Assembly (NCBI GenBank): GCA_965198125.1
Contig: CBDAOQ010000003.1
Coordinates: forward strand, 3,407,953-3,471,952
Origin: Candidatus Versatilivorator sp.
GTDB taxonomy: Bacteria > Acidobacteriota > Terriglobia > Versatilivoradales > Versatilivoraceae
Direction of reading: 5' to 3'
DNA: 64,000 bases
Below, piece after piece: positions 14,789 through 58,205 of this stretch (the stretch's first letter is position 1; each line of letters starts with the position of its first letter). Under the pieces are notes generated by a model, which was given only the letters and a program-made list of their open reading frames with translations, did not search any database and was not told where the DNA came from. The position numbers and the translations under genes were made by a program.

Positions 14789-14994
14789 CATGGATGCACA
14801 GGATGCACAGGATAAAACGGGACGAGATGACGCGGCACAGGAAGTGGACTCGCTCGATGATCGGGTACGTATTCCGATTGACCCATGAGCGTGGGAGCGG
14901 GTTTTGGGTAATCCATGTAGGAACATAGGCGATGGTTGAATTCAAGACGGTGCAACCGCCCGCCAATTAATCCTGTATATCCTGTCCATCCATG
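14789..14994. repeat. MITE-like unit with about 25-bp terminal inverted repeats (CATGGATGCACAGGATGCACAGGAT ... ATCCTGTATATCCTGTCCATCCATG), copy 1
   Basis: The two termini are reverse complements of each other. Related units occur at 21557-21811, 47106-47238, 47261-47408, 47439-47489 and 54439-54505. The internal segment CTCGATGATCGGGT...GATCCATGAGCKTGGGAGCGGGTTTTTGG is shared with the 21.6-kb copy. Confidence 0.7.
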
Positions 14995-21556: not shown

Positions 21557-21811
21557 ATCGATAGACAGGATAGACAGGATAAACAGGACGAGAAGCTGCT
21601 GCACAGGAAGGTGACTGGCTCGATGATCGGGTGTGGTTTGAAGTGATCCATGAGCTTGGGAGCGGGTTTTTGGAATCGGTATTAGGAGAAGGCGATGATG
21701 ATGGCCGTCTCTAAGGCAGGACTTGCCATTCAGTCTCACAAGCCCGCCAAGGTCTGCTTTCGGGAGAAGCCGGTTGGCGACAACACATCCTGTTTATCCT
21801 GTCCATCCATG
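21557..21811. repeat. MITE-like unit with ACAGGATA-repeat terminal inverted repeats, copy 2
   Basis: CATCGATAGACAGGATAGACAGGATAAACAGGAC ... ATCCTGTTTATCCTGTCCATCCATG; internal sequence homologous to copy 1. Confidence 0.7.
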
Positions 21812-41727: not shown

Positions 41728-41770
41728 GCCAGAGGGACCCTCGGGTGGAATCGGCAGGGTCCGGAGGTGT

Positions 41771-44359
41771 TTCATGGGGAAACCTGATTGGAAGAGACTT
41801 GTCCGGGGGTTGGTGCTGAGCCTCCTGCCGATCCTGGCGCCCGTACAGCTGGAAGCGGAGAAAGATAGCCGACCCCAGTCCGCAGAAGCGGCAGCGAGCC
41901 CGAACGGCTCGGCAGGCTCCGGCCAATTCCGTTCCCCCGAGAGTCTGCGGGACGTTCGCCTGGTTCCCTCTCAGGTGAGGCTGCAAGGGGAAGGGGCCTC
42001 GCAATCCTTCCTGGTGGTGGCCACCGACGCTCGGGGGCTGGAAGTCGATCTTACCTCCGAGTCGCGGTTCAGCCTGTCGGATGACCGGTTGGCAGAGGTC
42101 GGACCCGAGGGGCTGCTGAGAGCGCGCCGGGACGGAGAGGTCAGACTGCGGGCCGAGGTCGCCGGGCGGAGACTGGAGGCAGCGGTTCATATCGAAGGGA
42201 CCGCACGGGCCAGACCCTTCGGCTTCGCTCGCGATGTGGTCGGGGTCTTTACCCGCAACGGTTGCAACGGGAGTGAATGCCACGGCGGAGTGAAAGGCCG
42301 CGGCGGCTTCAAGCTGTCCCTGCATGGTATCAATCCCCGGGAGGACTACCGCTGGACCGTCACGGGCGGGGTCTATCAGGTGTTGTCGCCCAAAGCTGCC
42401 GAGCCCTTTGCCCCCCGGGTCGACCTGAAGGATCCGGAACAGAGCCGATTGCTGCTGAAGCCCACAATGGGGTTGCCCCACGGGGGAGGGCAGCGCTTCG
42501 AGCGGGACTCGGCCGACTACCGGAGGCTGCTGGAATGGATTCTCCAGGGAGCTCCCTACGGTGCCGGCAGCCAGGCGGGGGCGCGGATCGAGCGGCTGGA
42601 GGCCTCTCCGCGTGAAGCGATCATGGAGCCCGGGGCTCGGCGGCGACTGCTGGTGACCGCTTTTCTTGAGGACGGCCGCAGTGAAGACCTGAGTCCCGAG
42701 GTGCTTTACGAGAGCAGCGATCCGGCTGTGGTCGAGGTCAGCCCGGCGGGTGTGGTGCGCGCCCTCAAGCCGGGGCAGGCCAGAGTCTCGGTACGGGCGG
42801 CCGGGAAGCTGGTTCAGGTCCGCTGCGGGGTGATTCGACAACCTCTGGACCACTATCCGGAAGTGGCCAGACGCAATGTCATCGATGACCAGGTCTTCGA
42901 TCGGCTGCGAGAGCTGCACATCCTTCCGGCGGGTCTGTCAAGCGACTCCGCCTTCCTGCGGCGGGTTTGTCTGGACCTGACGGGGACCCTGCCGCCCCCG
43001 GAGCGCGTGCGCGAATTCCTGTCCGACCGGGATCCTCGGAAGCGGGAGCGTCTGATCGAGCGGCTGCTGAACTCGCCCGAATTTGTCGACTACTGGACGT
43101 TCCGCTTCGCCGACTTCTTCCGGGTGGTCTATCGCAATGCCTACAGCTACAAGAGCTGGATCCGGGAAAGCCTGGCCCGCAACAAACCCTACGACCAGAT
43201 GGCCCGGGAACGGGTGGCGTCCCAGGGCAACGGCGGGCCCACCCGGCATTTCATCAAGTCGGTCAGCGGGGAGGTCATGCGTCCCCACGAGAAGATGGGA
43301 GAGGACGTGCGGGTGTTCCTGGGCATACGCCTGGACTGTGCTCAGTGCCACGACCACCCCTATGAGACCTGGACCCAGGATCAGTTCTGGGGAATTACGG
43401 CCTTCTATGGTCAGCTGACCCGAATCCGCACCCCCTCGGTCTTCATGGACGACATTTCCGGGAACGAGGAGCAGCCCGAGGGACCCAAGGTGATTCACCC
43501 TCGCCGCCGGCAGGAAGTGGTGCCCAGCTTCCTGGACGGTTCGCCGGCATCCGCCACGGGCGTTAACCCGCGGGAGCTGTTGGCCGACTGGATGACGGCG
43601 CCGGAGAACCCCTATTTCAGCCGGGCCATCGTCAACCGGGTGTGGGCCAACTTTTTCGGAAAAGGACTGGTCGAGCCGGTGGACGATTTCAGGCCCGGCA
43701 ACCCTCCCAGCCACCCCGAGCTGCTGGAGGCCCTGGCCGAGGATTTTCGGCGCAGCGGCTTCGATCTCAAGCATCTGATGCGCACCATCGCCCGATCCGG
43801 AACCTATCAGCTTTCCGGAGACTTCAACCCGACCAACCGGGAGGATGAGATCAACCACTCCCGGGCCCTGCCTCGCCGATTGGACGCCGAGATCCTGCTG
43901 GATGCCATTTCACAAGTGACCGGCATCGAGGAGGCCTTTGCCGTCCACAATTATGTGCGTGGGGGCACCGAGCCCAAGGGGACGCGAGCCATTGAGCTGG
44001 TACCCGAAGTCACTCCCTCCCAGTTTCTGGAAGTCTACGGGAGACCCGTCAGCCGGGACAGCATGCCCTGGCGCGACTACCGTTCCACGCTCAGGCAGGC
44101 CCTCCACCTGCTGGTTGGCTCCACCTACACCACCAAGATCGGGGCCGAGGGAGGCCGGGTCGATCGACTCCTGTCGGACGGCGCCTCCGACCGGGAGATC
44201 GTTCGGGAACTCTATCTGGCCGCCCTGTCCCGCTATCCCACGGCGGAAGAGGAAGCCCGGCTCCAAGCCCTGATCGAGGGATCTCCATCGCGCCGGAAGG
44301 GTGTCGAAAACCTGGCCTGGGGGTTGCTCGCCTCGCGGCAGTTCACCTATAATCACTGA
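41771..44359 (+). CDS. PSCyt1/PSCyt2 (DUF1549)/PSD1 (DUF1553) domain protein
   Basis: CNGSECHGG (PSCyt1-type heme-like motif), LDCAQCHDHPYE (DUF1549 CxxCHDH motif), C-terminal DUF1553-like region, signal peptide. Confidence 0.8.
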   Translation, partial: FMGKPDWKRLVRGLVLSLLPILAPVQLEAEKDSRPQSAEAAASPNGSAGSGQFRSPESLRDVRLVPSQVRLQGEGASQSFLVVATDARGLEVDLTSESRFSLSDDRLAEVGPEGLLRARRDGEVRLRAEVAGRRLEAAVHIEGTARARPFGFARDVVGVFTRNGCNGSECHGGVKGRGGFKLSLHGINPREDYRWTVTGGVYQVLSPKAAEPFAPRVDLKDPEQSRLLLKPTMGLPHGGGQRFERDSADYRRLLEWILQGAPYGAGSQAGARIERLEASPREAIMEPGARRRLLVTAFLEDGRSEDLSPEVLYESSDPAVVEVSPAGVVRALKPGQARVSVRAAGKLVQVRCGVIRQPLDHYPEVARRNVIDDQVFDRLRELHILPAGLSSDSAFLRRVCLDLTGTLPPPERVREFLSDRDPRKRERLIERLLNSPEFVDYWTFRFADFFRVVYRNAYSYKSWIRESLARNKPYDQMARERVASQGNGGPTRHFIKSVSGEVMRPHEKMGEDVRVFLGIRLDCAQCHDHPYETWTQDQFWGITAFYGQLTRIRTPSVFMDDISGNEEQPEGPKVIHPRRRQEVVPSFLDGSPASATGVNPRELLADWMTAPENPYFSRAIVNRVWANFFGKGLVEPVDDFRPGNPPSHPELLEALAEDFRRSGFDLKHLMRTIARSGTYQLSGDFNPTNREDEINHSRALPRRLDAEILLDAISQVTGIEEAFAVHNYVRGGTEPKGTRAIELVPEVTPSQFLEVYGRPVSRDSMPWRDYRSTLRQALHLLVGSTYTTKIGAEGGRVDRLLSDGASDREIVRELYLAALSRYPTAEEEARLQALIEGSPSRRKGVENLAWGLLASRQFTYNH

Positions 44360-44370
44360 GGGATGCGCCT

Positions 44371-45705
44371 ATGGACCTGTCAATCGATCAGCTTGGCTGC
44401 TGCCGGCCCCGCCGGGAATTCCTCAGAGTCGGCGCTCTCAGCCTGCTGGGTCTGAGCCTGCGGCAGTACTTGGCCCTGGAAGCTGCCACCTCGCCTGCTG
44501 CCCGTTCGCGGAAAAAAGCCCAGGCCTGCATACTGCTGTGGCTGGAGGGTGGGCCCTCCCAGATCGACACCTGGGACCCCAAGCCCCACAGCCCATTCAA
44601 AGCCATTTCCACCCGGGCCGACGGCGTTCAGATCTCGGAGCTCTTTCCCCGGGTCGCCGGCCACATGGACAAGTTGGCCATTGTCCGCTCCATGCACACC
44701 GAGGAGAACAACCACCCTCAGGGCACCCACTACGCCCTGACCGGCCACCGGCCCAATCCGGCCTTGAAGTTTCCCAGCCTGGGTTCGATCATCTCCAAGG
44801 AGTTGGGGCCGAGGAACAACCTTCCGCCCTACATGATGGTCCCGGAGCACCAGGAGACCGATTTCTTTTCCTACATGGATGCCTACACCTCGGCCTTTTT
44901 GGGCTCGGAATACGATCCCATCATTCTGCCCGATCCCAGCAAGGAGTCCTTTCAGATTCCGGACCTGTCCTTGCCCGATACGCTGACGGCTGCCGATATT
45001 GCCGACCGCCGGTCGTTTCTGCAGGCGGTGGACCTTGGGTTCCGCCGGAAGGAGAAACATGCCGAATTCGGCAAGATGGACCGCTTCACCAACCAGGCCC
45101 TGACCATGCTGCTGTCGCCCAGCGTCAAGCAGGCCTTCGATCTGTCCCAGGAGTCGGACCGGACCAAGGAGGCCTACGGACGCACCCGAGTCGGTCAAAG
45201 CGTGCTGCTGGCTCGCCGCCTGGTGGAAGCCGGCTGTCGCTTTGTGACCACCTCCGGATACGCTCACGGGGCCTGGGACACCCACAAGGACAACGACCAG
45301 AGGCTGCGGGACAATCTGGCTCCCACCCTGGACCAGACCCTTTCCGCCTTGCTGGAGGACCTGCAGCAGCGCGGGCTGCTGGACTCCACCGTGGTGCTGG
45401 CCATGGGCGAGTTCGGCCGCACCCCCCACCTGAATGCCAACAATGGGCGGGATCACTATCCGGACTGCTGGTCGTTGATATTGGGGGGTGGAGGCATTCA
45501 GGGCGGGCGAGTGGTGGGCGCCAGCGACGAGCAGGGCGCCCAGGTGGCTGAACGGAGGGTCACCATGGGCGACCTCTTTGCCACCATCTACAAGGCCATG
45601 GGCATCGATTGGACCAAGGAGTACGTCAACCCCGGGGGCCGTCCTCTCTATATCGCCAACTCCATCGACGACGTCATGGGGCAGCCGCTCCACGAACTGG
45701 TGTAA
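44371..45705 (+). CDS. DUF1501 domain protein (sulfatase-like) with Tat signal
   Basis: RREFLRVGALSLLGL Tat motif; typical partner of DUF1549/DUF1553 proteins. Confidence 0.85.
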   Translation: MDLSIDQLGCCRPRREFLRVGALSLLGLSLRQYLALEAATSPAARSRKKAQACILLWLEGGPSQIDTWDPKPHSPFKAISTRADGVQISELFPRVAGHMDKLAIVRSMHTEENNHPQGTHYALTGHRPNPALKFPSLGSIISKELGPRNNLPPYMMVPEHQETDFFSYMDAYTSAFLGSEYDPIILPDPSKESFQIPDLSLPDTLTAADIADRRSFLQAVDLGFRRKEKHAEFGKMDRFTNQALTMLLSPSVKQAFDLSQESDRTKEAYGRTRVGQSVLLARRLVEAGCRFVTTSGYAHGAWDTHKDNDQRLRDNLAPTLDQTLSALLEDLQQRGLLDSTVVLAMGEFGRTPHLNANNGRDHYPDCWSLILGGGGIQGGRVVGASDEQGAQVAERRVTMGDLFATIYKAMGIDWTKEYVNPGGRPLYIANSIDDVMGQPLHELV

Positions 45706-46937: not shown

Positions 46938-47105
46938 GCTGGCCTCCCTCCCCGTGAGCTGAGGAACATAGATGAAAAACAGGGCAAAGTATAAAGATTC
47001 CTTTTCCGCTTGTCACCGTCCCGGAAGGTTCGGGCAGGAGGCGAAGGCTGATGCGGTGGGGGGGAACCGGCCCGGCGTCGAGGATTGATTTTTTTTCACA
47101 AATAA

Positions 47106-47489
47106 CATCGATGCACAGGATAAGCAGGAGGTCAGGTTGCTGGAGGGGAAAGCGGCTCGCGCGATACGACAGGCTCGATGCCCGCTATTGGGGCAAGGCG
47201 GTCGATGACAGTAATCCTGTGCATCCTGTGCATCCATGTTAATTAAAAAAATAAACAAACATGGATTAACAGGATAGACAGGATAACCGGGACGAGACGC
47301 TGCTGAAGGGAATGCTGACTCCAGTGATGATCGGTTGCGGGATTGCGGATGCTCAGGATTGCAAGCGAGCCGTTTCCTGAAAAATCCTGTGCATCCTGTG
47401 CATCGATGTTAATTATTCATTCCAATGTTGCACAGGATTACGGGGCTCCGGACTGGCAAAGGCAATCCTGTATGTGGTGTGCATCGATG
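47106..47489. repeat. three adjacent MITE-like units with ACAGGAT-type terminal inverted repeats (47106-47238, 47261-47408, 47439-47489)
   Basis: CATCGATGCACAGGATAAGCAGGAG...ATCCTGTGCATCCTGTGCATCCATG; CATGGATTAACAGGATAGACAGGATAAC...ATCCTGTGCATCCTGTGCATCGATG; TTGCACAGGAT...GGCAATCCTGTATGTGGTGTGCATCGATG. Confidence 0.65.
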
Positions 47490-47555
47490 CCAATAATCCC
47501 CATAAGTCAGTGCGCCGATCGACTGAAACCCCGCGGGTCAGGGACCTCCTCGTCC

Positions 47556-47700
47556 TTCCCAAACTTTGGCAGACCCCCCTTGCGCTTCCTCCAACCCCTT
47601 AGTGGCCCTTGGTCATTCTTCGTGTCCCTTCGTGGATAACTCTTTTTCCTTTCGTCGATCTATTTTTGGCCTTGGCGGATAACGCTCACGTGTCTCAGCG
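47556..47700. repeat. arm repeat partial copy ending GGATAACGCTCACGTGTCTCAGCGG, abutting the stop of the minus-strand spermidine synthase gene
   Basis: CCTCCAACCCCTTAGTGGCCCTTGGTCATTCTTCGTGTCCCTTCGTGGATAACTCTTTTTCC. Confidence 0.65.
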
Positions 47701-47704
47701 GATC

Positions 47705-49354
47705 TCAATTCCTCCAGGACTGCCGGTGGTACTGGAGAATGGTGGGCCGAAACTTGGTGTTGATTTCGATGTGAGCGTCATCGAGCCAGCGCTTGCCGAA
47801 GGCGGTGGCGTTGGACACCAGGGCTGCGGTGAGATAGCCGGTAGGGACCCCGATGGACTTCAGTCCTTCCAGCCTGGCCTTCATGGCTGTTTCACTGAGG
47901 CCGTCCAGCCAGGCCAGGTGCCATCCCCACTCCCCAAAGCTGGGGACGTTCTGGCGGTAGGGCAGGGCGCGGAAGCCGGCGGACCGCAGCGTTTTCCCAA
48001 TGCACAGAAACATCTCCCTGGAGTGGTAGGGCGAAGTGGATTGCACCGCCACCAGGCCGGTGGGACCGAGCTGGCGGGCCAGCCTGCGATAGAAATCCAG
48101 GGAATAGAGCTTGGCGGTGCCCACCGATCGCGGATCGGGAAAGTCGATGACCACCAGATCGTAGGGGCCCCGCAAGCTTTGGACGAACAGGTCGGCATCC
48201 AGGTTGAAGACCCGGACCCTGGCCTGGGGGTAAAGGGTGTCGCTCAGGAAGGAGGAGGCCAGCTTGCTGGGTCGGGAGATGGTCTGAGCTTCCCCGTCGG
48301 AGACGCCCTCCGCCTGCCGCAGGGTGACACGTCCGTCCAGCAGGGCTCCCCGGTTGAGTCGAACCAGGTCGGGATGGGTGGCGGCCAGATCGGTCATGGC
48401 GGGATCGATGTCCACCAGGTCCACTCGCCGCACCTCATCGTATTTCAGCACTTCCCGGACGGCCAGGCCGTCGCCTCCCCCGAGAATCAGGACTCTGGAG
48501 CGGGAGGAAGCCACCGAAAAGGGAACGTGGACCAGCATCTCGTGGTAGATCCGCTCATCCTGGGAATTGAACTGAAGTTGGCCGTTGATGAAGAGGCTGA
48601 GCCGGTCGTTCCTGCGGGTCATGACGATGTGCTGGTACCTGGAGCTGTGGCTGTAGATGATGGGGTCGCCGTAGGTTCTCTGTTCCAGCGAAACTCGCCA
48701 ATCCTCCGACAGCACCAGCAGGCAGCCCAGGATTGCCATTCCGGCGCAGGAGAGCAGCAGAAGCTTCCTGAAGTGTCGCAGCAGGGGACGGAAATAGGCC
48801 AGTCCCAGCAAGGCCAGCAGGAGGTTGGCGCATCCCAGGGCCACGGCGATCTGGTTGATGGAGAGGTTGGCGAAGAGGACGAAGGTGAACAGCAGGGCAC
48901 CCGCCAGCGAACCCACGTAATCCATGCTCAGGATCTCGGAGAGGTTGGTCTTGAGGCTGGCGGAATACTCGCGGTTGATGCGGATCAGCAGGGGGATTTC
49001 GAGCCCGATGAGGATGCCGATCCCCAGGGAGAATCCCCACAGCAGCAGCATGTAGCTGGAGGAATAGACGTAGGCCAGGTAGATGGCCAGGGCGCTGACT
49101 CCTCCCGTCAGCCCCAGCAGGATCTCGACCAGCAGGAACTTGTCGACCAGATCGCCGCTGATGTTCTTCTGCAGGGTGGCCCCCAGGCCCATGGCGAACA
49201 TCATCAACCCGATGACCACGAAGATCTGCTCGTGGGAGGACCCCATCAGGTTGTTGCCCAGAGCCCCCAGGGTGTACTCGTAGGCAATCCCGCAAGCTCC
49301 CATGACGAACATGGACGCCGCCAGCACCTTTCGGGCATGTCCGAATCGATTCAT
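47705..49354 (-). CDS. speE: membrane-anchored polyamine aminopropyltransferase (spermidine synthase-like) with N-terminal multi-TM domain
   Basis: About 7 N-terminal TM helices, then the spermidine synthase core VLILGGGDGLAVREVLKY...VDLVDIDP...YDLVVIDFPDP. Confidence 0.8.
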   Translation of the reverse strand: MNRFGHARKVLAASMFVMGACGIAYEYTLGALGNNLMGSSHEQIFVVIGLMMFAMGLGATLQKNISGDLVDKFLLVEILLGLTGGVSALAIYLAYVYSSSYMLLLWGFSLGIGILIGLEIPLLIRINREYSASLKTNLSEILSMDYVGSLAGALLFTFVLFANLSINQIAVALGCANLLLALLGLAYFRPLLRHFRKLLLLSCAGMAILGCLLVLSEDWRVSLEQRTYGDPIIYSHSSRYQHIVMTRRNDRLSLFINGQLQFNSQDERIYHEMLVHVPFSVASSRSRVLILGGGDGLAVREVLKYDEVRRVDLVDIDPAMTDLAATHPDLVRLNRGALLDGRVTLRQAEGVSDGEAQTISRPSKLASSFLSDTLYPQARVRVFNLDADLFVQSLRGPYDLVVIDFPDPRSVGTAKLYSLDFYRRLARQLGPTGLVAVQSTSPYHSREMFLCIGKTLRSAGFRALPYRQNVPSFGEWGWHLAWLDGLSETAMKARLEGLKSIGVPTGYLTAALVSNATAFGKRWLDDAHIEINTKFRPTILQYHRQSWRN

Positions 49355-49369
49355 GGGGAGAAATGCGGG

Positions 49370-50260
49370 TTAAATCATGAAAAATAGGATGGACGCCATG
49401 CCGATGGCCACCACCGACTCGATCCAGGCGGCTCCCAGGTTTCTGTCGACCGCAATTTCGTGGGCGATGCGGGTCCGGGGCAGCAGCGCGTGATCGACCA
49501 GTTCACGCAACAGGAAGAGGGCCACAAAGCCGACGACCGCCAGGCTGGCATATTCGGTGAGGCTGGCCCTGAAGGATTCGAAGTGGTGGGCGCTTGCCTT
49601 CAGCAACAGAATGCCCAGGGCGACCATGTTGCCGCCGAATGCCACCCCTGCCGCCGGGTTGTCCTTCTCAATCTCGGCGTGGATGTCGTAGCGGGTGATC
49701 CACTGATAGAAGATGGAAAAGAGGACCAGCGTCACTTGGCCCGCAAGGAAATAGCACACGGCGGTGATGGGGCCGGTCCAGGCTCCGGCGAAGGCGGATT
49801 CGGGGGGGATTTCGCCGTAAATCCCCCCCGCCAGGATGAGAGCCGTGGCGATATAGGCTCCGCACAGCACGGCTCCGGTCCCCACGTTTCTGTCCTGGAC
49901 CAGTTCCTTGTAGATGCTGAATTGGCGCAGCACCAGCTTGTCCAGGAGTTTTCTGCCCAGATTGAGCAGGATGATTCCGCCGAGGGCGTAGGCGGCCACC
50001 ACCCCCAGTTCCGGCAGAAGCCGGTCGAGGTTCAGCAGGTCGCCCTCGGTTCCGGTGGAGGCGCCCAGGAAGACAATCATGACGCCGGCGTAATAGCCGC
50101 TCAAGCTCAGACCGATGGCCGGGTTGTCCCGGACCGTCAACTCCTCGTCGAGGGAATAGGGCGTGAGCAGGTCGTTGACGAACTTGGCAATCATCAGCAT
50201 GACTGCGCCAAGGACCACATAGCACAAGCTGACTCCGAGATCGATCCATTCCATGGTCAC
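49370..50260 (-). CDS. DUF350 domain membrane protein (two DUF350-like repeats)
   Basis: Repeated 4-TM modules typical of DUF350/YjfL; tightly linked to the spermidine synthase gene (overlap with the next gene at 50257-50260). Confidence 0.65.
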   Translation of the reverse strand: MTMEWIDLGVSLCYVVLGAVMLMIAKFVNDLLTPYSLDEELTVRDNPAIGLSLSGYYAGVMIVFLGASTGTEGDLLNLDRLLPELGVVAAYALGGIILLNLGRKLLDKLVLRQFSIYKELVQDRNVGTGAVLCGAYIATALILAGGIYGEIPPESAFAGAWTGPITAVCYFLAGQVTLVLFSIFYQWITRYDIHAEIEKDNPAAGVAFGGNMVALGILLLKASAHHFESFRASLTEYASLAVVGFVALFLLRELVDHALLPRTRIAHEIAVDRNLGAAWIESVVAIGMASILFFMI

Positions 50261-51693
50261 TTGCCTCCAAAGGAGCGGCTCCCGCGAGAACGATAGGATC
50301 CGCCTCGTCCGCTGGCGCCGGCGGTTCGGTATCGAGAGGATCGATACCCCCTGAGGTTGCCGCCGCTCTGCTTGTAATAGGAGTTTCGATAGCCGCCGCT
50401 TCGGACGTAGCGGGAGGATCGATATCTGGAGGCGGCCATCCGGCTGTTGGTGCCGTAGCGAGGCCGGCCGGCGGCGGTCCGGCCGTAGTAGGTTCTGCCC
50501 GAGGTGTGGGATCGGCGATAGCCGCTGTAGTCATTGGGAAGGATAGGCCGGTAAGCGGATCCCCAGAACATGGAGCGCATGAACATGTACTGGCCGTAAA
50601 AGGCCCAGAAGGAACCGCCGTGGCTGTCCCGGCGCCAATGCCCGTACTGGTTGCTCTGCCCGGGGGGGGCCAGGTAGGAATAGCCGGCCGGCTGGACCAG
50701 GGTTTCGGCTTCTTCCTCGTATTTCCCCGCCGGCTTGCGGGCCACCGACATCCCCAGCTTGCCTTCCAGGGCATCGAAGGTGGCTTTGGAAACCTGAACC
50801 CAGGCCTCCCTTTCGGAGTGGGCGCCCTGTTTCTTCTGGGGATCCTGGATTTGTACGGTCACCGTCTTGTACTTGTGGTAGAGGGTCAGGGCCTCCCCCT
50901 CCCTGATTTCCATGTCCACCAGGACCCTGTCCCAGGAGAGGTAGAGCTCACCCACCCGCTGGCCGAGCTGACTGTCGAGCCGCGCCAGTTGCAGCCCGTC
51001 GGCCTGCAGGCTCTGGTGAGTCTCCAGAATCAGCAGGGCATCGGCGTCGGGGGCGGCGATGGCCCGGGAGCGCTCCTTCCACAGGGATGCTGACCGGGCC
51101 TTGACTTCAGCCATTCGCTGGATGGCCTGACTCAAGTCGGCTTTTTTCTCGGGCCAGTCGATCATGGCTCTCTGAGCGCCGGCAACGCTGGCAGGGCGAT
51201 AGGCGGAGAGTTGGCGAACGCTGGCTTGCACCTCCCCGATGTACCGGCTGCGATTCTTGTCCACCTCGCTGACGGTCCTGGCCAGATCCAGTATCTCGCT
51301 GGCCGCCTGCAAGGTCTGGGTCCGCTTCTGCCTGGCCTGGCCGATGCGGCTTTCGATCTCCACCCGCAGTTTGTCATCGTCTTGCGCGGCCAGTTCCTGG
51401 GCCTGGTCCAGTTCGCTGGAGGCCGAGTCCAGGTCCTTTTCGGAACGGGACAGTCGGGACAGCCACTGCTCCCGCCTGGGCTGAGGCAGCCCGGTCATGG
51501 AGTCGATCAGGGATCGGGCCTCCCGGCTCAGCTCGCGGAAATTGGCCCGTGACGAGTTGAGGAGCTGCTCGGCGGTAGCCAGGCCGGCTTGGGTCTGCGG
51601 ATTCAACCCCCCGCCCGAGTAGGTGAGAACCCCCACCAGGAGAGCCAAGACGGCTACTCCGGCCGAGGCGTAGATCAAGGATTTTCTGTCCAT
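50257..51693 (-). CDS. membrane-anchored coiled-coil protein with Gly/Tyr/Arg/Ser-rich C-terminal tail, function unknown
   Basis: N-terminal TM helix, long helical region, C-terminal low-complexity GYRSSRYR tail; 478 aa. Confidence 0.5.
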   Translation of the reverse strand: MDRKSLIYASAGVAVLALLVGVLTYSGGGLNPQTQAGLATAEQLLNSSRANFRELSREARSLIDSMTGLPQPRREQWLSRLSRSEKDLDSASSELDQAQELAAQDDDKLRVEIESRIGQARQKRTQTLQAASEILDLARTVSEVDKNRSRYIGEVQASVRQLSAYRPASVAGAQRAMIDWPEKKADLSQAIQRMAEVKARSASLWKERSRAIAAPDADALLILETHQSLQADGLQLARLDSQLGQRVGELYLSWDRVLVDMEIREGEALTLYHKYKTVTVQIQDPQKKQGAHSEREAWVQVSKATFDALEGKLGMSVARKPAGKYEEEAETLVQPAGYSYLAPPGQSNQYGHWRRDSHGGSFWAFYGQYMFMRSMFWGSAYRPILPNDYSGYRRSHTSGRTYYGRTAAGRPRYGTNSRMAASRYRSSRYVRSGGYRNSYYKQSGGNLRGYRSSRYRTAGASGRGGSYRSRGSRSFGGK

Positions 51694-51703
51694 CGTTCTC
51701 CTC

Positions 51704-52105
51704 CTACTGAACCACCGTCACCGATCGGCTCAAAACCGCCGTGGACTCCTGGGGATAGTAGTGCAGGGAACTCACCTCCAGCCCACGCTCCAGGGGGTCC
51801 ACTCCCAGGCAGGTCATCGGCGGGCAGTGGCCGACCTTCCCGGGGGCAAACTCCGAAGCCAGGTGGACCGGATAGCGGGCAATCCGGGTTCGCGCTCGAT
51901 CCAGCCATTCCAGTCCCGAGGCTCCTCCGGTTGAGATCCGCCGGATCTCGAACTCGAAGCGGAGGTCCCCGTCCCGGTACTGGAAGGGTTGCCGGCCGGA
52001 GAAGTCCGACCCCAGGCAGAAGACCGGCGCCATCTCGCTGCCGCCGGCGCAGGAGAGCAGTTCCGACCAACGCCTGCACCGTATCAGGTGACTGGCTGCG
52101 ATCAC
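51704..52105 (-). CDS. hypothetical protein (GTG start); could be an AdoMetDC-like or YjfI-like partner of the polyamine/PspA cluster
   Basis: Only positional evidence plus an open frame. No motif confidently recognised. The frame is open upstream to 52372 but has no alternative start. Confidence 0.3.
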   Translation of the reverse strand: MIAASHLIRCRRWSELLSCAGGSEMAPVFCLGSDFSGRQPFQYRDGDLRFEFEIRRISTGGASGLEWLDRARTRIARYPVHLASEFAPGKVGHCPPMTCLGVDPLERGLEVSSLHYYPQESTAVLSRSVTVVQ

Positions 52106-52374
52106 GTGAACCTGGAAGTCCAGGTCGAGGTGACGCAGGCCGGCCGAGGTTACGACCTTGAACCGGGAGGGGTCGATGGCTTCCCGGAAAAGGCGGAGTC
52201 GCAGGTTCCGGTGTGAGGTGTCCTGGTATTGTATGGCGAACCTCGGCCGGCAGTTCTCAGCCAGTGGCTGGGTGCATGGTGAAGATGATTCTTGCCGCGG
52301 CGTCTTTCCGGCCCCGCGGTGAATGCTGCCGGACAGAGACCGCGCCAGGCGCTCCCCCGAGCGAGCATTGCGGG

Positions 52375-52989
52375 CTAAGCTGGAAAGATCCTGACCCGGC
52401 TGGGGCTGATCTTTTCCGAGATGCCGACCTCGAAGGGGTCGCCCTCATATTTCTCGATGAAGAGCTGAAGGTCGTCGCATTCGAACTTCCAATAATAGAA
52501 CCCCTCGCCCTGCGGGCCGTCGTCCTTGAAATAGTCGGCCTCGGCGCTTTCCCGGTAGACCCATCGCTTCCCCTGATACTCGATGAAGCGGGACCGCGAT
52601 TTCTCCTCATCCATGCGGGCCAGATCCTCTTCGCTGGCGCCGATGGCTTCCAGGTGCAGCCCGCCCTGCCTCTGAATGGTGACTTCCAATTCGTCGTCTT
52701 CGGACCACTCCAGGAAGACCCTCTTGCCGGCACTGAGGCCGCTCAACTCGAACCACTCCTCGCCGTTGGACTCGTAGCGGTTCAGTCGGTCCACGGTAAA
52801 GGACAGGTCTTCGTAGGATTGGCCGGCTCCGGAAAGGATGAGGTTGTCCCCCCGGGACGCATCCTTGATGGTGAGGTTGGCCAGATCGGTTCTCTGGGGC
52901 AAGGCCTGCGCCTTGGGCTTTTTGCGAAGCGCTTTGTAGAGGAGGTAACCTGCCAGGCCCAGAAGGATCAGGATGAGGACTTCGGTCAT
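52375..52989 (-). CDS. DUF4178-like protein with N-terminal TM helix
   Basis: N-terminal TM MTEVLILILLGLAGYLLY. Immediately downstream of pspA, a known PspA-partner architecture. Confidence 0.55.
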   Translation of the reverse strand: MTEVLILILLGLAGYLLYKALRKKPKAQALPQRTDLANLTIKDASRGDNLILSGAGQSYEDLSFTVDRLNRYESNGEEWFELSGLSAGKRVFLEWSEDDELEVTIQRQGGLHLEAIGASEEDLARMDEEKSRSRFIEYQGKRWVYRESAEADYFKDDGPQGEGFYYWKFECDDLQLFIEKYEGDPFEVGISEKISPSRVRIFPA

Positions 52990-53012
52990 GGTGAGGTGCC
53001 GTCGCCGCCGGC

Positions 53013-53699
53013 TTAGGGAGCCTTGGAGGACTTCACCTCGGCCTTCAGCCTGTCCAGCTCGCTGTCGGTGGTGGAGACGTCCAGGGCGGCAAACTCCTTC
53101 TCCAGATCGGGGTCGGCGCCGGCCGACATGTTCTCATAGGCCTTGGCGGTGGCTTCTTCCCGGTTGACGGCCTCCTCGAAGCGCGCAATGGACGCAAAGG
53201 CGTTGTCGTCGGTCCCCAGACCGCTCATCACCTGGGCCATCTTCTTCTGGGCGTTGGCGGCGTTCTTCCTGGCAATGAGAGTGCTGGCCTTGCGCTTGGA
53301 CTCGTCGATCTTGCGGCGGAGCTGCTCCACCTGGTTCTTGAGCTTGTCACGAGCGGCCACGCCTTGATCCACCGCATCCTTGAGGGTTGCCGCCTGCTGT
53401 TCGCATTCGGTCTTTTTGGCCAGAGCCTTCCGCGCCAGATCCTCGTTGCCGGCCAGCAGGGCTTTCCTGGCCTTGCCTTCCCAGTCCTTGGACTGTTCCA
53501 GAAATTTGCCGTACTCGGCTTCGAGGCGATTGCAGTTGCTCATGGCATCGGCGGCGGACCGGATCACCCGGTGAAGCTGGTCCTCCATGTCCCGAATGCT
53601 CTGCCGCAGGGTCGACTCGAAAGTGGCATCCTCCAATTTGTCGACGCCTTGGTTGAGCTTGCCCTTGCTGACTCGAAACAATCTGTCCAGGATCCCCAT
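53013..53699 (-). CDS. pspA: PspA/IM30 family protein (phage shock protein A-like)
   Basis: MGILDRLFRVSKGKLNQGVDKLED... coiled-coil; about 228 aa typical of PspA/IM30/Vipp1. The ORF-track 278-aa N-terminal extension is rejected. Confidence 0.85.
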   Translation of the reverse strand: MGILDRLFRVSKGKLNQGVDKLEDATFESTLRQSIRDMEDQLHRVIRSAADAMSNCNRLEAEYGKFLEQSKDWEGKARKALLAGNEDLARKALAKKTECEQQAATLKDAVDQGVAARDKLKNQVEQLRRKIDESKRKASTLIARKNAANAQKKMAQVMSGLGTDDNAFASIARFEEAVNREEATAKAYENMSAGADPDLEKEFAALDVSTTDSELDRLKAEVKSSKAP

Positions 53700-53730
53700 G
53701 GTTATCGACTCCTTCGCTAAGAAATGCGGG

Positions 53731-54144
53731 TCAGGTGCTCTGAGGCTCTTCCAGCAGGTCCCTGGCCTCGCAGACATCTCCGACCAGGAAGCTGATGCAG
53801 GAGAGGATGTCGTCCCGATCATCCTCGCCCAGGCTCTGCAGCTTGGCAAAGTTGTTCAGGGTGATGGCCGTCTTGCCGTTCCCCAGGTCGTAAAGCTGGA
53901 AGCTGGAGGTGGAGATGCCGTTTTGGGCATCCAGCATCCTGGCCATCAAGGCCCCGCTGACCGAACCGGAATCCACCACCTGGCAAGAGACTGCGTTGTA
54001 GAGAATCTCCTGCTCCAGCACGCACGAGACCGAAATACCGCTCTCCAGGTCTCTGATCCGTAGCGTGTCGCCTTCAACCTCGACCACCTCGTAACCGGCG
54101 TTGGCAACGATTTCCTCCACCACATCGATCGACGGACCCGCCAT
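53731..54144 (-). CDS. YbjN-like small cytoplasmic protein (putative chaperone-like), co-operonic with pspA
   Basis: 31-bp gap to pspA. 137 aa from MAGPSIDVV; weak resemblance to YbjN-domain proteins. Confidence 0.4.
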   Translation of the reverse strand: MAGPSIDVVEEIVANAGYEVVEVEGDTLRIRDLESGISVSCVLEQEILYNAVSCQVVDSGSVSGALMARMLDAQNGISTSSFQLYDLGNGKTAITLNNFAKLQSLGEDDRDDILSCISFLVGDVCEARDLLEEPQST

Positions 54145-54278
54145 TGCGAAACCTCCCTGAGCAACTATCCAAAGCACATTTGCAACGGCGCCATTATGGC
54201 AGTAATGGCCGCGATTATCAATGCCGGTGGGAATGAGCGGCCGGAAGCCTTCGAACTCCAAGGGATTCCTGTTACAGT

Positions 54279-54562
54279 CTGGCGAGGCCGTGCCTCAGAC
54301 CGATAAGCCAGGGAAAAAAGATATCCACGAAGGGAGACGAAGAGACTGATTGATGAATGGTTGATTGCCGATCGATGTCTCCGGAAGGACCCTGCGCTTG
54401 CCGCTTGACCCTTGGAAGATCATGGATGGATGAAATGGAACATGGATGAACAGGATGGACAGGACAATGGAGACGGAAAACCATCCGGTTCATCCTGTCT
54501 ATCGATGTAAATCAAAGATCTGGCGAGGCCGTGCCTCAGACCGACAAGCAGGGAGGGGGAAA
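54279..54562. repeat. repeat locus 5: conserved unit CTGGCGAGGCCGTGCCTCAGACCGAYAAGC (x2, direct) flanking a short CACGAAG array and a MITE-like unit (54439-54505)
   Basis: 54279-54367 matches 21121-21292. 54439-54463 (CATGGATGAACAGGATGGACAGGAC) and 54488-54505 (TCATCCTGTCTATCGATG) are inverted. 54518-54562 repeats the unit. Confidence 0.65.
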
Positions 54563-54706
54563 AGAACCACAAATTCACACCAACGGACTCCAATGATGTC
54601 ATAGAACCGGCCACTCCCATTCAAGCTGGGGACGCTTGAAATCAAGGATCAATCCGACTCTCAAAAAACTATTGAATCAGTCTGCTATGTTTGTTATAAA
54701 GTATAT

Positions 54707-56539
54707 ATGGACAGTTCACACGCCAATTCGACCACGCTGCGCACCATCCGCGCCAACCTTGATCTCACCCAGGAGCAGCTCGCCGAGCGGCTCGGTGTCT
54801 CTTTCGCCACCGTCAATCGCTGGGAAGGCGGATTGGTAACGCCCCAAAAGGCAGCTCGGGAGGCCATCGCCGCGCTGGCTGCCGAAGCCGGAGTCGACGC
54901 CCAGGAATCCGTTGCGGAACCCACCGAAGCGGCGGCGCGCGTGACCCGCCGGCGGTCCCGCCGGCGCCGGACGGCTGCTCCTTCCACCAAACCCATGGAG
55001 CAGATGCTGTGGGACGCGGCCTGCTCCATCCGCGGGGAGAAAGACGCGCCCAAGTTCAAGGACTACCTGTTGCCGCTTCTTTTCCTCAAACGCCTTTCGG
55101 ACGTCTTCGACGACGAGATCGATCGCCTGGCCGAGGAATTTGGAGACCACGAGGTCGCGCAAGAGATCGCGGAGAATGACCACGATCTGCTGCGCTTCTA
55201 CCTGCCGCCGGAAGCCCGCTGGGGAGTCATCAGCGGACGCGAAACTCACCAGTGGCCCCTCGACGACCACGGGCGAAGCACGCGGCCGCACGACATCGGC
55301 GAGCATCTGACCCGGGCGGTGCGGGTGGTCGTGCGGCAGAATCCCTCGCTTTCGGGCGTCATTGACCTCGTCGATTTCGCCTCCGAGCGCAACGGCGAGC
55401 GCGACCTCAACCCGGCCAAGCTCGCCGACGTGGTCGAGACCTTCTCCGATTCCCGATACCGGCTCGGCCTGGCCGACGTGCAGCCCGACTTCCTGGGACG
55501 CGCCTACGAGTACCTGCTCCGCAAATTTGCCGAAGGTTCCGGCCAGAGCGCGGGCGAGTTCTTCACCCCCACCGAGGTCGGCTTCCTCATGGCCCACCTC
55601 ATGCGCCCCAGGCCCGGCGAGGACTGCCACGACTATGCCTGCGGCTCGGCCGGTCTGCTGGTCAAGCTCGAACTGGTCGCGCGCGAACTCGACCCCACCA
55701 GCCGCGTGCCGCTCAAGCTCTGCGGCCAGGAACTGCAGGCCGAAAGCTACGCCGTCGCCCACATGAACGCCGTCATCCACGACATGGAGGTGGAAATCGC
55801 CCGCGGCGACACCATGATCAACCCCAAGTTCAAGACCCCATCGGGCCAAATCGCCGACCACGACATCGTGGTCGCCAATCCCATGTGGAACCAGCCCTTC
55901 AGCCCGGACCTCTTCGCCAATGACCCCTTCGACCGCTTCCGCACCCGGGGCGGCGTCACCACCGGCAAAGGCGACTGGGCCTGGCTCCAGCACACCCTGG
56001 CCTGCCTCAACCAGCGCGGGCGGGCGGCGGTGGTGCTCGACACCGGCGCAATGACCCGCGGCTCCGGCAGCAAGCATGAGGACCGGGAGCGCAACATCCG
56101 CAAGTGGTTCGTCGAGCGCGACCTCATCGACGGCGTCATCCTGCTGCCGGACAACCTCTTCTACAACACCAGCGCCGCCGGCGTCATCGTGGTGCTGTCC
56201 AAGCGCAAACCGGCCGCGCGGAAGGACAGGATCGTGCTCCTCAACGCCAGCCGGCGCGTGCGCAAGGGCCGCCCCAAGAACTACATCCCGGAGGAGGACA
56301 TCCGTCCCCTGGCGGCGGCCTTTGCGAAAGGCGAGCCGTTGCAGGGCGAGGTCGCCGTCATCACGCGCGAGCAGGCGGAACAGGCGGACTACAACCTCAG
56401 CCCGAGCCGCTGGGTGGGGCAGGCCGAGGCCGTCGCTCAGCGACCGATTAGGGAGATCATTGCCGAAATGCAGCGCCTCGATGATGAGGCCCGAGAGGTC
56501 GATGCGCGCCTGGCGGAAATGTTAGCACGACTGCAATAG
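54707..56539 (+). CDS. hsdM: Type I restriction-modification N6-adenine DNA methyltransferase subunit M with N-terminal HTH (XRE-like) domain
   Basis: N-terminus [21 protein letters not shown] is an HTH. HsdM N-terminal domain. AdoMet site FFTPTEV. Catalytic NPMWNQPF region; 610 aa. Confidence 0.85.
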
Positions 56540-56574
56540 TCGTGGATACTCAGGACCAAAGGAGGTAGGAGAGC

Positions 56575-56946
56575 ATGGGAGCGACGCAGGTAACGGTCAG
56601 AATCACCAACCCCGCGGAGCCGGACAGGTTTTGGGAGGGGTTGTTTCTGGTGGATATCGGGGCCACCGATTCCCTTGTCCCCAGACAGCATCTTGAGGCT
56701 ATCGGCCTCCAGCCCAGGGGCCGAAGGACTTACGAGCTTGCCGACGGCAGTGAACTCGCCGTCGACGTCACGGTGGCGGAGATAGAGTTCATGGGCGAGG
56801 TCATCGGCGGGACGGTGATATATGGCGAGTCCAACGCGGAGCCGCTGCTGGGCTTAACGGCGCTGGAATCCGTGGGCATTGAGGTGGACCCGGTGAGCCA
56901 GCGGTTGAAGAGGCTGCCGGCCGTGCGGCTCAAGGGGCTGGTGTGA
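56575..56946 (+). CDS. retropepsin-like (clan AA) aspartic protease
   Basis: FLVDIGATDSLVP matches the D(T/S)G(A/S) active-site context of retroviral-type aspartyl proteases. 123 aa; stop overlaps the hsdS start (ATGA). Confidence 0.55.
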   Translation: MGATQVTVRITNPAEPDRFWEGLFLVDIGATDSLVPRQHLEAIGLQPRGRRTYELADGSELAVDVTVAEIEFMGEVIGGTVIYGESNAEPLLGLTALESVGIEVDPVSQRLKRLPAVRLKGLV

Positions 56947-58205
56947 CGACAAGGGAGACAACCCGCCTTGCGGACATGTGCGACCTGACAGCGGAGCCGG
57001 TAAGGCCCGGCACTCGGCCGGAGGCACTCTATCTCGGTCTGGAGCATCTTGCTTCCGGGCGGCTTGTTCGAATTGGCGGCGGTCGGGCGTCAGAGATGCG
57101 AAGCACCACATCCGCGTTTCAAGCCGATGACGTGCTGTACGGAAAACTCCGTCCGTATCTCGACAAGGCCATATTGGCTGACGAGCCGGGTGTCTGCACG
57201 ACGGAACTGCTCGTACTCCGGGCCAAGGCCAACGTAGACCCTCGATTCCTCGCTGTATTTCTTCATTCTCGTGGATTCCTCGAGTATGCGGTTGCGGGAA
57301 CAACGGGTGTCCAGCATCCAAGGACGTCATGGGCACACATTCGAGAGTACGTGCTCCCTGCCCTCACGTTAACTGAACAGCAACGAATTGCCGACCTACT
57401 TTGGCTTGTGCATGGGGCAATCAGCCGGTCAGAGAAGCTGGTCGACGAAGGCCAAGCCCTCAAGCGCGCCGCCATGCAAACACTGTTCACGCGCTGCCTG
57501 CGCGGCGAGGCTCAGAAAGAAACCGAGATCGGCCCGGTGCCGGAGAGTTGGGATATTGCGCCAATAGCCTCAGTCGCTAGGGTGAAGGGTGGAAAACGAA
57601 TGCCCAAAGGCGTTGCTTTGACAAATGAAGATACCGGAAAGCCCTACATCCGCGTAACGGATTTCAGGGACCATGGAGTGGATGTTAATCAGTTGCTGTT
57701 TGTACCAAGGGGTTACGAGTCGACGATATCACGCTACATCATCTCCATCGACGACGTGTACATCTCGATTGCCGGGACCATTGGCCTAGTCGGACAAGTT
57801 CCACAGGTTCTTGATGGTGCGAATCTGACCGAGAACGCTGCGAAAATCTCGTTGATCGATCAAAGCGTAAACACACGTTTCTTGATGTACGCACTTGCCT
57901 CAGATACCTGCCAATCGCAGATCGCACAATCTACAGCTACGAACGCACAGCCGAAGCTCGCACTGGTTCGTATAGAACAGATCCAGTTACCAATTCCTCC
58001 GACATTGGACGAACAGAACGAGATCGTCGCCATTCTCGACGCCATCGACCGCAAGATCGACCTGCACCGCAGGAAACGTGCCGTCCTCGACGATCTGTTC
58101 AAGGCACTCCTTCACAAGCTGATGACGGGTGAAATCCGTGTCGCAGATCTGGGTCTGTCAGCGCTAAGGGAAACGGCCTTATCTTCACAAACTTTTAGCG
58201 GCTAA
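56943..58205 (+). CDS. hsdS: Type I restriction-modification specificity subunit S
   Basis: Two target-recognition domains with conserved spacers (YLGLEHL, DVLYGKLRPYLDK, second TRD and LFKALLHKLMTGEIRV). Confidence 0.8.
   Translation: MTTRETTRLADMCDLTAEPVRPGTRPEALYLGLEHLASGRLVRIGGGRASEMRSTTSAFQADDVLYGKLRPYLDKAILADEPGVCTTELLVLRAKANVDPRFLAVFLHSRGFLEYAVAGTTGVQHPRTSWAHIREYVLPALTLTEQQRIADLLWLVHGAISRSEKLVDEGQALKRAAMQTLFTRCLRGEAQKETEIGPVPESWDIAPIASVARVKGGKRMPKGVALTNEDTGKPYIRVTDFRDHGVDVNQLLFVPRGYESTISRYIISIDDVYISIAGTIGLVGQVPQVLDGANLTENAAKISLIDQSVNTRFLMYALASDTCQSQIAQSTATNAQPKLALVRIEQIQLPIPPTLDEQNEIVAILDAIDRKIDLHRRKRAVLDDLFKALLHKLMTGEIRVADLGLSALRETALSSQTFSG

Follow-up and report, generated by a model that had tools for sequence, protein, structure and literature searches.

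The stretch of DNA analysed here, which we refer to as the window, comprises 64,000 nucleotides of the acidobacterium Candidatus Versatilivorator sp. (GenBank assembly GCA_965198125.1, contig CBDAOQ010000003.1, positions 3,407,953 to 3,471,952), and our subject is a group of seven co-oriented minus-strand open reading frames (ORFs) at 47705–54144 in which a PspA/IM30 protein is encoded together with a membrane-fused aminopropyltransferase. A preliminary description of the window had already listed these seven genes, and all of the ORFs are present at the coordinates it gave. PspA/IM30 systems are central to the maintenance of bacterial membranes. In transcription order, and in positions of the window, the features are as follows.

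54193..54221, minus strand: sigma-70-like promoter, TTGATA-17-CATAAT with an upstream TG, 49 nt 5′ of the g1 ATG (54144)
53731..54144, minus strand: g1, 137 aa, putative divergent CesT/Tir (YbjN-like) protein, directly upstream of pspA
53013..53699, minus strand: PspA/IM30 (PF04012), 228 aa, starts MGILDR
52375..52989, minus strand: DUF4178 protein (PF13785), 204 aa, one N-terminal transmembrane (TM) helix, then KALRKKPK
51704..52243, minus strand: DUF2617 protein (PF10936); the listed ORF has 133 aa from GTG 52105 (51704–52105)
50257..51693, minus strand: G5, 478 aa, predicted to be exported, with a signal-anchor TM helix and no Pfam family
49370..50260, minus strand: double DUF350 protein (YjfL family, PF03994), about 8 TM, with a start that overlaps the stop of G5
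47705..49354, minus strand: fusion of a 7-TM domain and an aminopropyltransferase (PABS) domain, 549 aa, NF002956

Judged by their layout, the seven genes appear to constitute one operon behind one conserved promoter, beyond what chance would give. The intergenic gaps are 31, 23, 10, −4 and 15 nt, with the exception of the gap before the DUF2617 gene, which measures 110–269 nt depending on the choice of DUF2617 start. Within 47000–55000, the promoter at 54221–54193(−) is the sole sigma-70-like site, and minus-strand terminator-like sites number 6 vs 6.4 expected by chance; a terminator scan combined with folding found no intrinsic terminator after the last operon gene. Folding of the DUF4178–DUF2617 spacer gave no sign of a regulatory RNA (z-score 0.36), and Rfam searches across the operon region returned no gathering-level match, with hairpin-like noise as the sole yield at E ≤ 1. 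The same seven genes occur in the same order in two independent assemblies, at loci that we designate L004 (~86% protein identity) and L085 (~97%), and the closest relatives of the operon proteins come from uncultured Acidobacteriota assemblies. In the alignment with L004 (86% identical) conservation starts exactly at the −35 hexamer, and across L004 and L085 it spans the −35, the −10 and a GGGAGG ribosome-binding site up to the g1 ATG. The upstream neighbors differ between assemblies, with a type I restriction system in the window and in L004, which is syntenic there, vs Fic/PIN genes in L085, and this marks the upstream boundary of the operon unit. The preliminary description had held that strong internal promoters or terminators, or a dead catalytic core in the aminopropyltransferase, would speak against the cluster; with one promoter-like site, terminators not above chance and a core whose residues are invariant in homologues (see below), the cluster stands.

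The second gene encodes PspA, as had been proposed, with a full-length match to PF04012 (E = 4.4e-43, 147.9 bits vs a gathering threshold of 33.9, profile positions 1–217 of 220) and relatives in L004 and L085 that are called at an identical 228 aa. It falls below the NCBIfam equivalog cutoffs (TIGR02977, 98.2 vs 242.95; NF045984, 75.1 vs 380), and on these scores it belongs to the family without being orthologous to E. coli PspA or B. subtilis LiaH. The gene in front of it, g1, had been called YbjN-like. Neither g1 nor 27 of its homologues match any Pfam family at E ≤ 0.01, PF22550 (CesT_Tir_1) and PF10722 (YbjN) included, and the g1 family, a small one, accounts for 83 clusters (50% identity) in a set of 1.8 billion representatives. 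We set a profile of the 27 homologues against aligned pspA neighbors from other loci, among which the leading sequence (L082) matches CesT_Tir_1 at E = 8.5e-47 and another (L007) weakly at 1.6e-6, and obtained an hhalign E of 4.9e-5 with a probability of 68% over 126 of ~140 columns. Together with the location of g1 immediately 5′ of pspA, this profile similarity makes a divergent CesT/Tir (YbjN-clan) partner of PspA the best reading of the gene, as a putative member of that clan. The third gene encodes the expected DUF4178-like TM protein (PF13785, E = 3.8e-9, 37.2 vs a gathering threshold of 25), whose DUF4178 domain is predicted to be cytoplasmic and tethered by the single TM helix; searches of the PDB found no relatives of it. 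The membrane protein of the sixth gene likewise carries the two DUF350 copies that had been ascribed to it, in two stretches of PF03994 (E = 5.3e-53, 179.1 vs a gathering threshold of 26).

The last gene encodes an aminopropyltransferase with its own 7-TM domain. The protein matches Spermine_synth (E = 4e-31) and NF002956 (membrane polyamine aminopropyltransferase; PRK03612), the latter at 576.7 bits vs a cutoff of 472, and its AlphaFold2 (AF2) model (pLDDT 84.8) places seven TM helices ahead of a complete aminopropyltransferase fold, which aligns with the Thermus, Thermotoga, plant and E. coli enzymes at target-normalised TM-scores of 0.73–0.80. Invariant in 82 homologues are Q241 (of the YQ motif), Y270, D295 (GGGDG), D/E315, D386 and the catalytic D404 and D407; all residues that bind decarboxylated S-adenosylmethionine (dcSAM), the acidic ribose binder and the catalytic D-x-x-D are present. 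In the alignment, F473 falls on the PxYPSG Tyr (‘VPMYPSG’ in 6QMM), and all 82 homologues have F, M or L here, never Tyr. A 37–40 aa insertion (343–381) marks a subclade of the enzyme that includes the window and accounts for 21 of the 82 homologues. The TM domain has invariant polar residues of its own (Y25-E26-Y27, the loop GNNLMGSSHEQ, E77, E119, R125, N127 and D145-Y146), which suggest that something passes through it. We considered and rejected an assignment of this domain to the major facilitator superfamily (MFS), as MFS_1 matches at no better than E = 4.7 and NF037959 falls below its cutoff. A lookup of the exact enzyme sequence in public assemblies gave no match.

Between the DUF2617 and DUF350 genes lies the gene for G5, which had been described as membrane-anchored and does have a signal-anchor TM helix. 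G5 has 106 detectable homologues, mainly in Acidobacteriota, and matches no Pfam family; a relation to DUF4247 was rejected, there being no Pfam signal for it even at E ≤ 1. In the AF2 model (pLDDT 81.7) the N-terminal TM helix is followed by a helical bundle (~32–250), a beta-rich conserved core (~250–445) and a disordered basic R/S/Y/G tail, a fold for which we found no match among the solved structures of the PDB (best E 0.38). Lipoboxes (L-x-x-C) are present on short homologues (236–280 aa) at six other loci and on a long homologue in L019, and these lipobox forms share the core PAGY.Y...NQYG.W....SFW.FYGQY...YYG and a basic tail ending RSFGGK. The lipoprotein signals on its homologues indicate that the G5 family is extracytoplasmic, and G5 itself is predicted to be exported and anchored in the inner membrane. 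In Shewanella, a protein annotated ‘LipoSIG+Ctha_1186+Low-comp’ directly precedes DUF350 and SpeE (PMC11237479), and since the architecture and position of G5 match those described there by Ravi et al., G5 is probably the TM/signal-anchored long form of the ‘Ctha_1186’ lipoprotein family, an assignment made from architecture and position and not from sequence comparison; this probable identity as a long form of the lipoprotein family is new here. An apparent G5–enzyme fusion in L006, considered as a topology marker, turned out to be an artefact of an over-extended alternative-frame ORF.

The 133-aa ORF had been put forward as the missing supplier of dcSAM, similar to S-adenosylmethionine decarboxylase (AdoMetDC). 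This identification fails: the ORF belongs to DUF2617 (PF10936, E = 9.4e-9, 36 bits vs a gathering threshold of 22.3, profile positions 45–159 of 160), with the conserved residues SH71, E80, C84, H180 and Y182 present, it has no PF02675 match, and hhalign against AdoMetDC genes from related loci gives a probability of 1% over 13 columns. No relatives of DUF2617 were found in the PDB. Its reading frame stays open upstream of GTG 52105, and the next ~45 codons (YQDTSHRNLRLRLF...) are conserved in relatives at the protein level; this start-less open frame is the sole place where the first 44 profile positions are encoded. Most DUF2617 relatives start with M/V-QQPS (from ATG or GTG) and have a length of 197–198 aa, and in the window no ATG, GTG or TTG lies upstream of GTG 52105 in the DUF2617 frame. 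The independent assembly L085 has the identical start-less upstream sequence, which points to a feature of the lineage and not a read error. Either a non-canonical start would be used (in-frame CTG 52264 or ATA 52234) or the protein would be made without its first strands. A decaying gene is another possible account of the start-less region (52106–52374), and one relative, P0251, comes from a visibly frameshifted assembly of the DUF2617 region.

An enzyme-profile scan of one genome per GTDB species gave 80 loci from many phyla, which we annotated with iterated hidden Markov models (HMMs), all-against-all clustering and Pfam checks of the cluster representatives. The genes found near the enzyme, counted over 81 loci, are listed here.

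DUF350: 64 of 81 loci
DUF4178: about 43 of 81
flavin adenine dinucleotide (FAD) amine oxidase: 36 of 81
AdoMetDC: 29 of 81
G5: 18 of 81
K+ channel with RCK domain: 17 of 81
PspA, with a CesT_Tir_1 gene adjoining: 15 of 81
Band7-SHOCT: 14 of 81
DUF2617: 4 of 81

The link between PspA, DUF350 and the aminopropyltransferase that had been noted in the window therefore recurs across phyla, and PspA lies within 10 kb of the enzyme at 15 of the loci, in at least six phyla, vs an estimated chance expectation of ~1% or less. Three arrangements can be distinguished. Type A has the order [Band7-SHOCT]-AdoMetDC-DUF4178-DUF350-enzyme-amine oxidase. Type B, found in Verrucomicrobiota and Calditrichota (loci L007, L008, L010–L012, L014, L015 and L021), has the order enzyme-lipoprotein-DUF350-x-K channel-CesT-PspA-AdoMetDC-AAA, where the lipoprotein (family c22) has a ‘NNLDLNEDGKVDYI’ motif and x is an unannotated cytoplasmic protein (c23); neither c22 nor c23 matches a Pfam family. 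Type C, to which the window belongs, has the order DUF4178-[DUF2617]-G5-DUF350(8TM)-enzyme, which the CesT-PspA dyad may precede or follow; at some loci the dyad is missing. Parts of the latter also occur on their own. In Bryobacteraceae we found CesT-PspA-DUF4178-G5 without the enzyme (L001, 6095–10364; L002 and L003, 6121–9518), in L002 and L003 also without DUF350, which means that the tie of G5 to the enzyme is no closer than its tie to PspA, and in L009 and L024 we found DUF4178-DUF2617-G5-DUF350-enzyme without PspA. That the PspA and enzyme modules occur apart means that the operon is modular, and by this comparison the window has a PspA module joined to an aminopropyltransferase module.

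This modularity, with each of the two modules (PspA-G5 and enzyme-DUF350) found alone in other genomes, together with the gap of 110–269 nt before DUF2617, could be taken to mean that the operon genes are coincidental neighbors without shared function. Given a gene order that is identical in three independent assemblies, a proximity of PspA and enzyme at 15 of 81 loci and in at least six phyla where chance would give ~1% or less, a single promoter-like site and terminators not above chance, we regard coincidence as extremely improbable.

The same loci bear on whether DUF2617, although not an AdoMetDC itself, might replace it as supplier of the aminopropyl donor in clusters without speD. AdoMetDC is missing within 10 kb at the loci with DUF2617 (L004, L009, L024, L062 and the window), as is DUF2617 at the loci with AdoMetDC; Ravi et al. 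predict that DUF2617, with its conserved His, His, Asp and Glu, acts as an enzyme (PMC11237479), and the two families have a short motif in common (LHYYPQE in DUF2617, HTWPE in AdoMetDC). The mutual exclusion is, however, not significant (P ~0.18, by hand calculation, for 4 loci avoiding 28 of 81 by chance), both genes are absent from most type C loci, the hhalign probability of 1% covers 13 columns only, and the DUF2617 of the window has no proper start codon, all of which makes such a replacement very unlikely.

The preliminary description had also taken the cluster for a membrane-stress and polyamine module. Its first half, a stress gene cluster with an aminopropyltransferase, fits what we found, but the label ‘spermidine synthase’ is doubtful in view of the passage in PMC12803844 that, citing Li et al. 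2019, describes bacterial fusions of membrane proteins with aminopropyltransferase-like domains as experimentally not involved in spermidine or spermine biosynthesis. If the 549-aa protein were nonetheless a true membrane spermidine or polyamine synthase, locally made polyamines would stabilise the stressed membrane alongside PspA. Consistent with this, the protein scores above the cutoff of the NF002956 ‘polyamine aminopropyltransferase’ equivalog, keeps all dcSAM-binding and catalytic residues, and belongs to a family that adjoins AdoMetDC and amine oxidase genes in other genomes, and Ravi et al. discuss polyamines and membrane stability (PMC11237479). Opposed to it are the experimental negatives summarised in that passage of PMC12803844, the replacement of the PxYPSG Tyr of the acceptor-binding region by F, M or L in 82 of 82 homologues, and the lack of any AdoMetDC or putrescine-pathway gene in the cluster or the window. 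We consider a true polyamine synthase unlikely; going by the same passage, the enzyme is probably not a spermidine maker.

We instead think it reasonably likely that the locus is a single envelope-stress operon of the class that unites a CesT/Tir-PspA dyad with a 7TM-spermine-synthase-like fusion, DUF350, a lipoprotein and DUF4178. Working at the cytoplasmic membrane together with DUF350, the fusion enzyme would pass the aminopropyl group of dcSAM to some acceptor that is not putrescine, and a speD elsewhere in the genome, outside the window, would supply the dcSAM. The polar-lined 7-TM domain, again with DUF350, would move donor or product across the bilayer, G5 would act as periplasmic partner, scaffold or sensor, and PspA with its CesT-like adaptor would protect or remodel the inner leaflet during this envelope chemistry. 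The use of dcSAM is suggested because all donor-binding residues are kept, and an acceptor other than putrescine because the pocket is altered and because of the negative results to which the passage in PMC12803844 refers. As to compartments, g1, PspA and DUF2617, which lack export signals, are predicted to be cytoplasmic, and the DUF350 protein (8 TM) and the 7-TM fusion to be integral membrane proteins. EXIT data for the Mycobacterium tuberculosis operon Rv2597–Rv2601 agree with the assigned compartments: Rv2599, the DUF4247 protein in the slot of G5, gave active beta-lactamase fusions at residues 108, 129 and 136, and Rv2597 (DUF4178, 14 library fusions) and Rv2598 (DUF2617, 12) were not enriched as exported (PMC5405230 supplement).

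Several points weigh against this reading. An AdoMetDC HMM run over the whole 64-kb window returned nothing, so there is no dcSAM source in the window, and type C loci never have AdoMetDC within 10 kb; for this type, the use of dcSAM is suggested by the conserved residues only. NF002956, whose cutoff the enzyme passes, is an equivalog that names it a plain polyamine aminopropyltransferase, and the fusions that were tested for spermidine synthesis may differ from the subfamily of the window. In addition, the DUF2617 encoded here may be non-functional, having no canonical start codon.

The envelope chemistry could be placed on either side of the membrane. We lean slightly towards the conventional arrangement, in which the catalytic domain lies in the cytoplasm and the product is exported. 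In the other arrangement, to which we give somewhat less than an even chance, the aminopropyltransferase domain would be periplasmic, the 7-TM domain would hand dcSAM across, the target would be an envelope component, and G5, or in other genomes a Tat-exported amine oxidase, would act on the same side. The AF2 model predicts exactly seven TM helices, and K+R amount to 8.6 on the N-terminus and loops 2/4/6 vs 1.6 on loops 1/3/5, with the same sign in 82 of 82 homologues; under the positive-inside rule, this charge bias and seven helices would put the catalytic domain outside. Twin-arginine (Tat) signals are present on 23 of the 27 amine oxidases linked to the enzyme, which predicts that the linked oxidase is a periplasmic flavoenzyme, and the slot of G5, DUF4247 or c22 always holds a lipoprotein or exported protein. 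The amine oxidase genes that adjoin the enzyme gene belong to loci L009, L016, L018, L039 and L046–L084, and some of the Tat signals have a lipobox Cys after them. The suggestion from charge bias, helix number and Tat signals that the catalytic domain may face the periplasm is new here. Against it, enzymes that depend on dcSAM or SAM are not known to work beyond the cytoplasm, the partner AdoMetDC is a cytoplasmic protein, and an MFS relationship of the 7-TM domain is not supported here (MFS_1, E = 4.7). No fusion of Rv2601, the M. tuberculosis enzyme, was recovered as exported in the EXIT data (PMC5405230 supplement), a result that would also count against an outward orientation but decides nothing, since the reporter brings no promoter of its own and Rv2601 closes its operon; the multi-pass Rv2600 that precedes it was also unrecovered (PMC5405230 supplement). 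We therefore set EXIT aside as an uninformative source for Rv2601 topology.

Tentatively, and with a probability that we put at roughly one in three, an outward-facing enzyme would aminopropylate a lipid head group, peptidoglycan or a protein, not a free polyamine, with G5/Ctha_1186/DUF4247 and the Tat oxidase acting on the product and PspA guarding the membrane. It would then be, to our knowledge, the first extracytoplasmic dcSAM-dependent enzyme, and an outward orientation would explain ‘spermidine synthases’ that make no spermidine. Thousands of genomes, M. tuberculosis included, carry a membrane-fused ‘spermidine synthase’ with DUF350, and the charge bias, the Tat oxidase and the exported partners turn the comparative analysis into a concrete question, namely on which side of the membrane the chemistry takes place.

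Both spacers that flank the operon contain copies of a dispersed repeat with the core ATCCTGTGCATCCTGTGCATC, which lies at 47089–47496, 14793–14813, 14970–14990, 21787–21807 and 54445–54465. It has six matches in the window vs 0.02 expected, in direct and inverted copies that are often beside CATCGATG or TTAATTAA, and looks like a repetitive extragenic palindromic or miniature inverted-repeat transposable element (REP/MITE-like) or a binding-site array. Downstream of the enzyme gene, a 767-bp spacer of low GC content (0.56) at 46938–47704 separates it from an Fe-alcohol dehydrogenase gene; the corresponding spacer has 776 bp in L085 and only 68 bp in the 86%-identical L004, which suggests that an insertion probably carried the ATCCTGTGCATCCTGTGCATC repeats. 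A hairpin in this spacer (47211–47287) gives weak miRNA-like Rfam noise. Farther downstream of the dehydrogenase gene lie a PSCyt2/PSD1 (DUF1553-type) gene and a DUF1501 gene at 41696–45705 (+), a pair that also flanks the L004 cluster, on the strand opposite to the cluster. On the other side, in the divergent hsdM–g1 promoter region, a 28-nt direct repeat CGGTCTGAGGCACGGCCTCGCCAGA occurs at ~54516–54543 and ~54275–54302 (−), ~240 bp apart, with the second copy just upstream of the −35 hexamer. The type I restriction-modification system that is divergent from the operon (54707–58205, plus strand) consists of three genes.

54707–56539, plus strand: HsdM with an N-terminal helix-turn-helix
56575–56946, plus strand: small aspartyl-protease-like ORF
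56943–58205, plus strand: HsdS

Clusters of fusions like the present one have been noted before. Li et al. 2019 (Biochem J 476:2579) reportedly found that MFS-like/SpdSyn-like fusions cluster with AdoMetDC and DUF350, in host bacteria that are said to lack spermidine, and that the fusion fails to complement an E. coli speE mutant. Going by this account and the citation in PMC12803844, those clusters have the same fusion and the same DUF350 partner as the window, and our type A loci reproduce the AdoMetDC-DUF4178-DUF350-enzyme-amine oxidase order of such clusters, whereas the window lacks AdoMetDC and amine oxidase and has PspA, the CesT-like gene, G5 and DUF2617. At the level of the enzyme itself, canonical SpeE (PDB 1JQ3, 3O4F and 6QMM) shares the fold and the YQ, GGGDG and D-x-x-D motifs, and the window enzyme differs from it in the N-terminal 7-TM domain, the 37–40 aa insertion and a Phe for the PxYPSG Tyr. 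The likeness to E. coli yjfIJKLMC that had been pointed out initially (third group of Ravi et al., PMC11237479) extends to the PspA paralogue YjfJ with its CesT/Tir-type partner YjfI and to the DUF350 protein YjfL, but E. coli lacks the aminopropyltransferase fusion, DUF4178, DUF2617 and G5, and Pfam found no DUF2170 (YjfI), DUF2491 (YjfK), DUF1190 (YjfM) or ATP-grasp YjfC among the seven proteins of the window. As no yjf-specific family is present, that analogy comes down to PspA and DUF350.

The closer counterpart is the second group of CesT/Tir-PspA operons of Ravi et al. 2024 (PMC11237479), which contains the 7TM-spermine-synthase-like fusion, an 8-TM DUF350, the Ctha_1186 lipoprotein and DUF4178, and of which a PspA-less variant with DUF4247 and DUF2617 has M. 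tuberculosis Rv2597–Rv2601 as its type (PMC11237479); relative to this class, the CesT membership of g1 is weakly supported by sequence. Shewanella oneidensis SO_3763–3767 has in common with the window the CesT/Tir-like gene with PspA, the 8-TM DUF350, the 7-TM fusion and DUF4178, and in both cases DUF350 and the enzyme are immediately preceded by an exported protein whose tail is of low complexity. In the window, however, the dyad comes first, DUF2617 is added, a ribbon-helix-helix regulator is missing, and the exported protein carries, instead of a lipoprotein signal, a TM anchor and a helical bundle of ~220 aa. M. tuberculosis Rv2597–Rv2601 has exactly the gene order of the final five genes of the operon (TM-DUF4178, DUF2617, exported protein, DUF350, membrane aminopropyltransferase), although the CesT-PspA dyad is absent there, the exported slot is filled by a DUF4247 protein with no detected sequence relation to G5, and the enzyme subfamily, judged from L068 and L072, is without the 37–40 aa insertion; these two actinobacterial loci have DUF4178 and DUF4247 ahead of DUF350 and the enzyme. 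By gene content, the window thus merges the M. tuberculosis Rv2597–2601 gene order with a CesT-PspA pair, a combination that is new here, and it is a member of an already published operon class that joins both published variants and not a new system.

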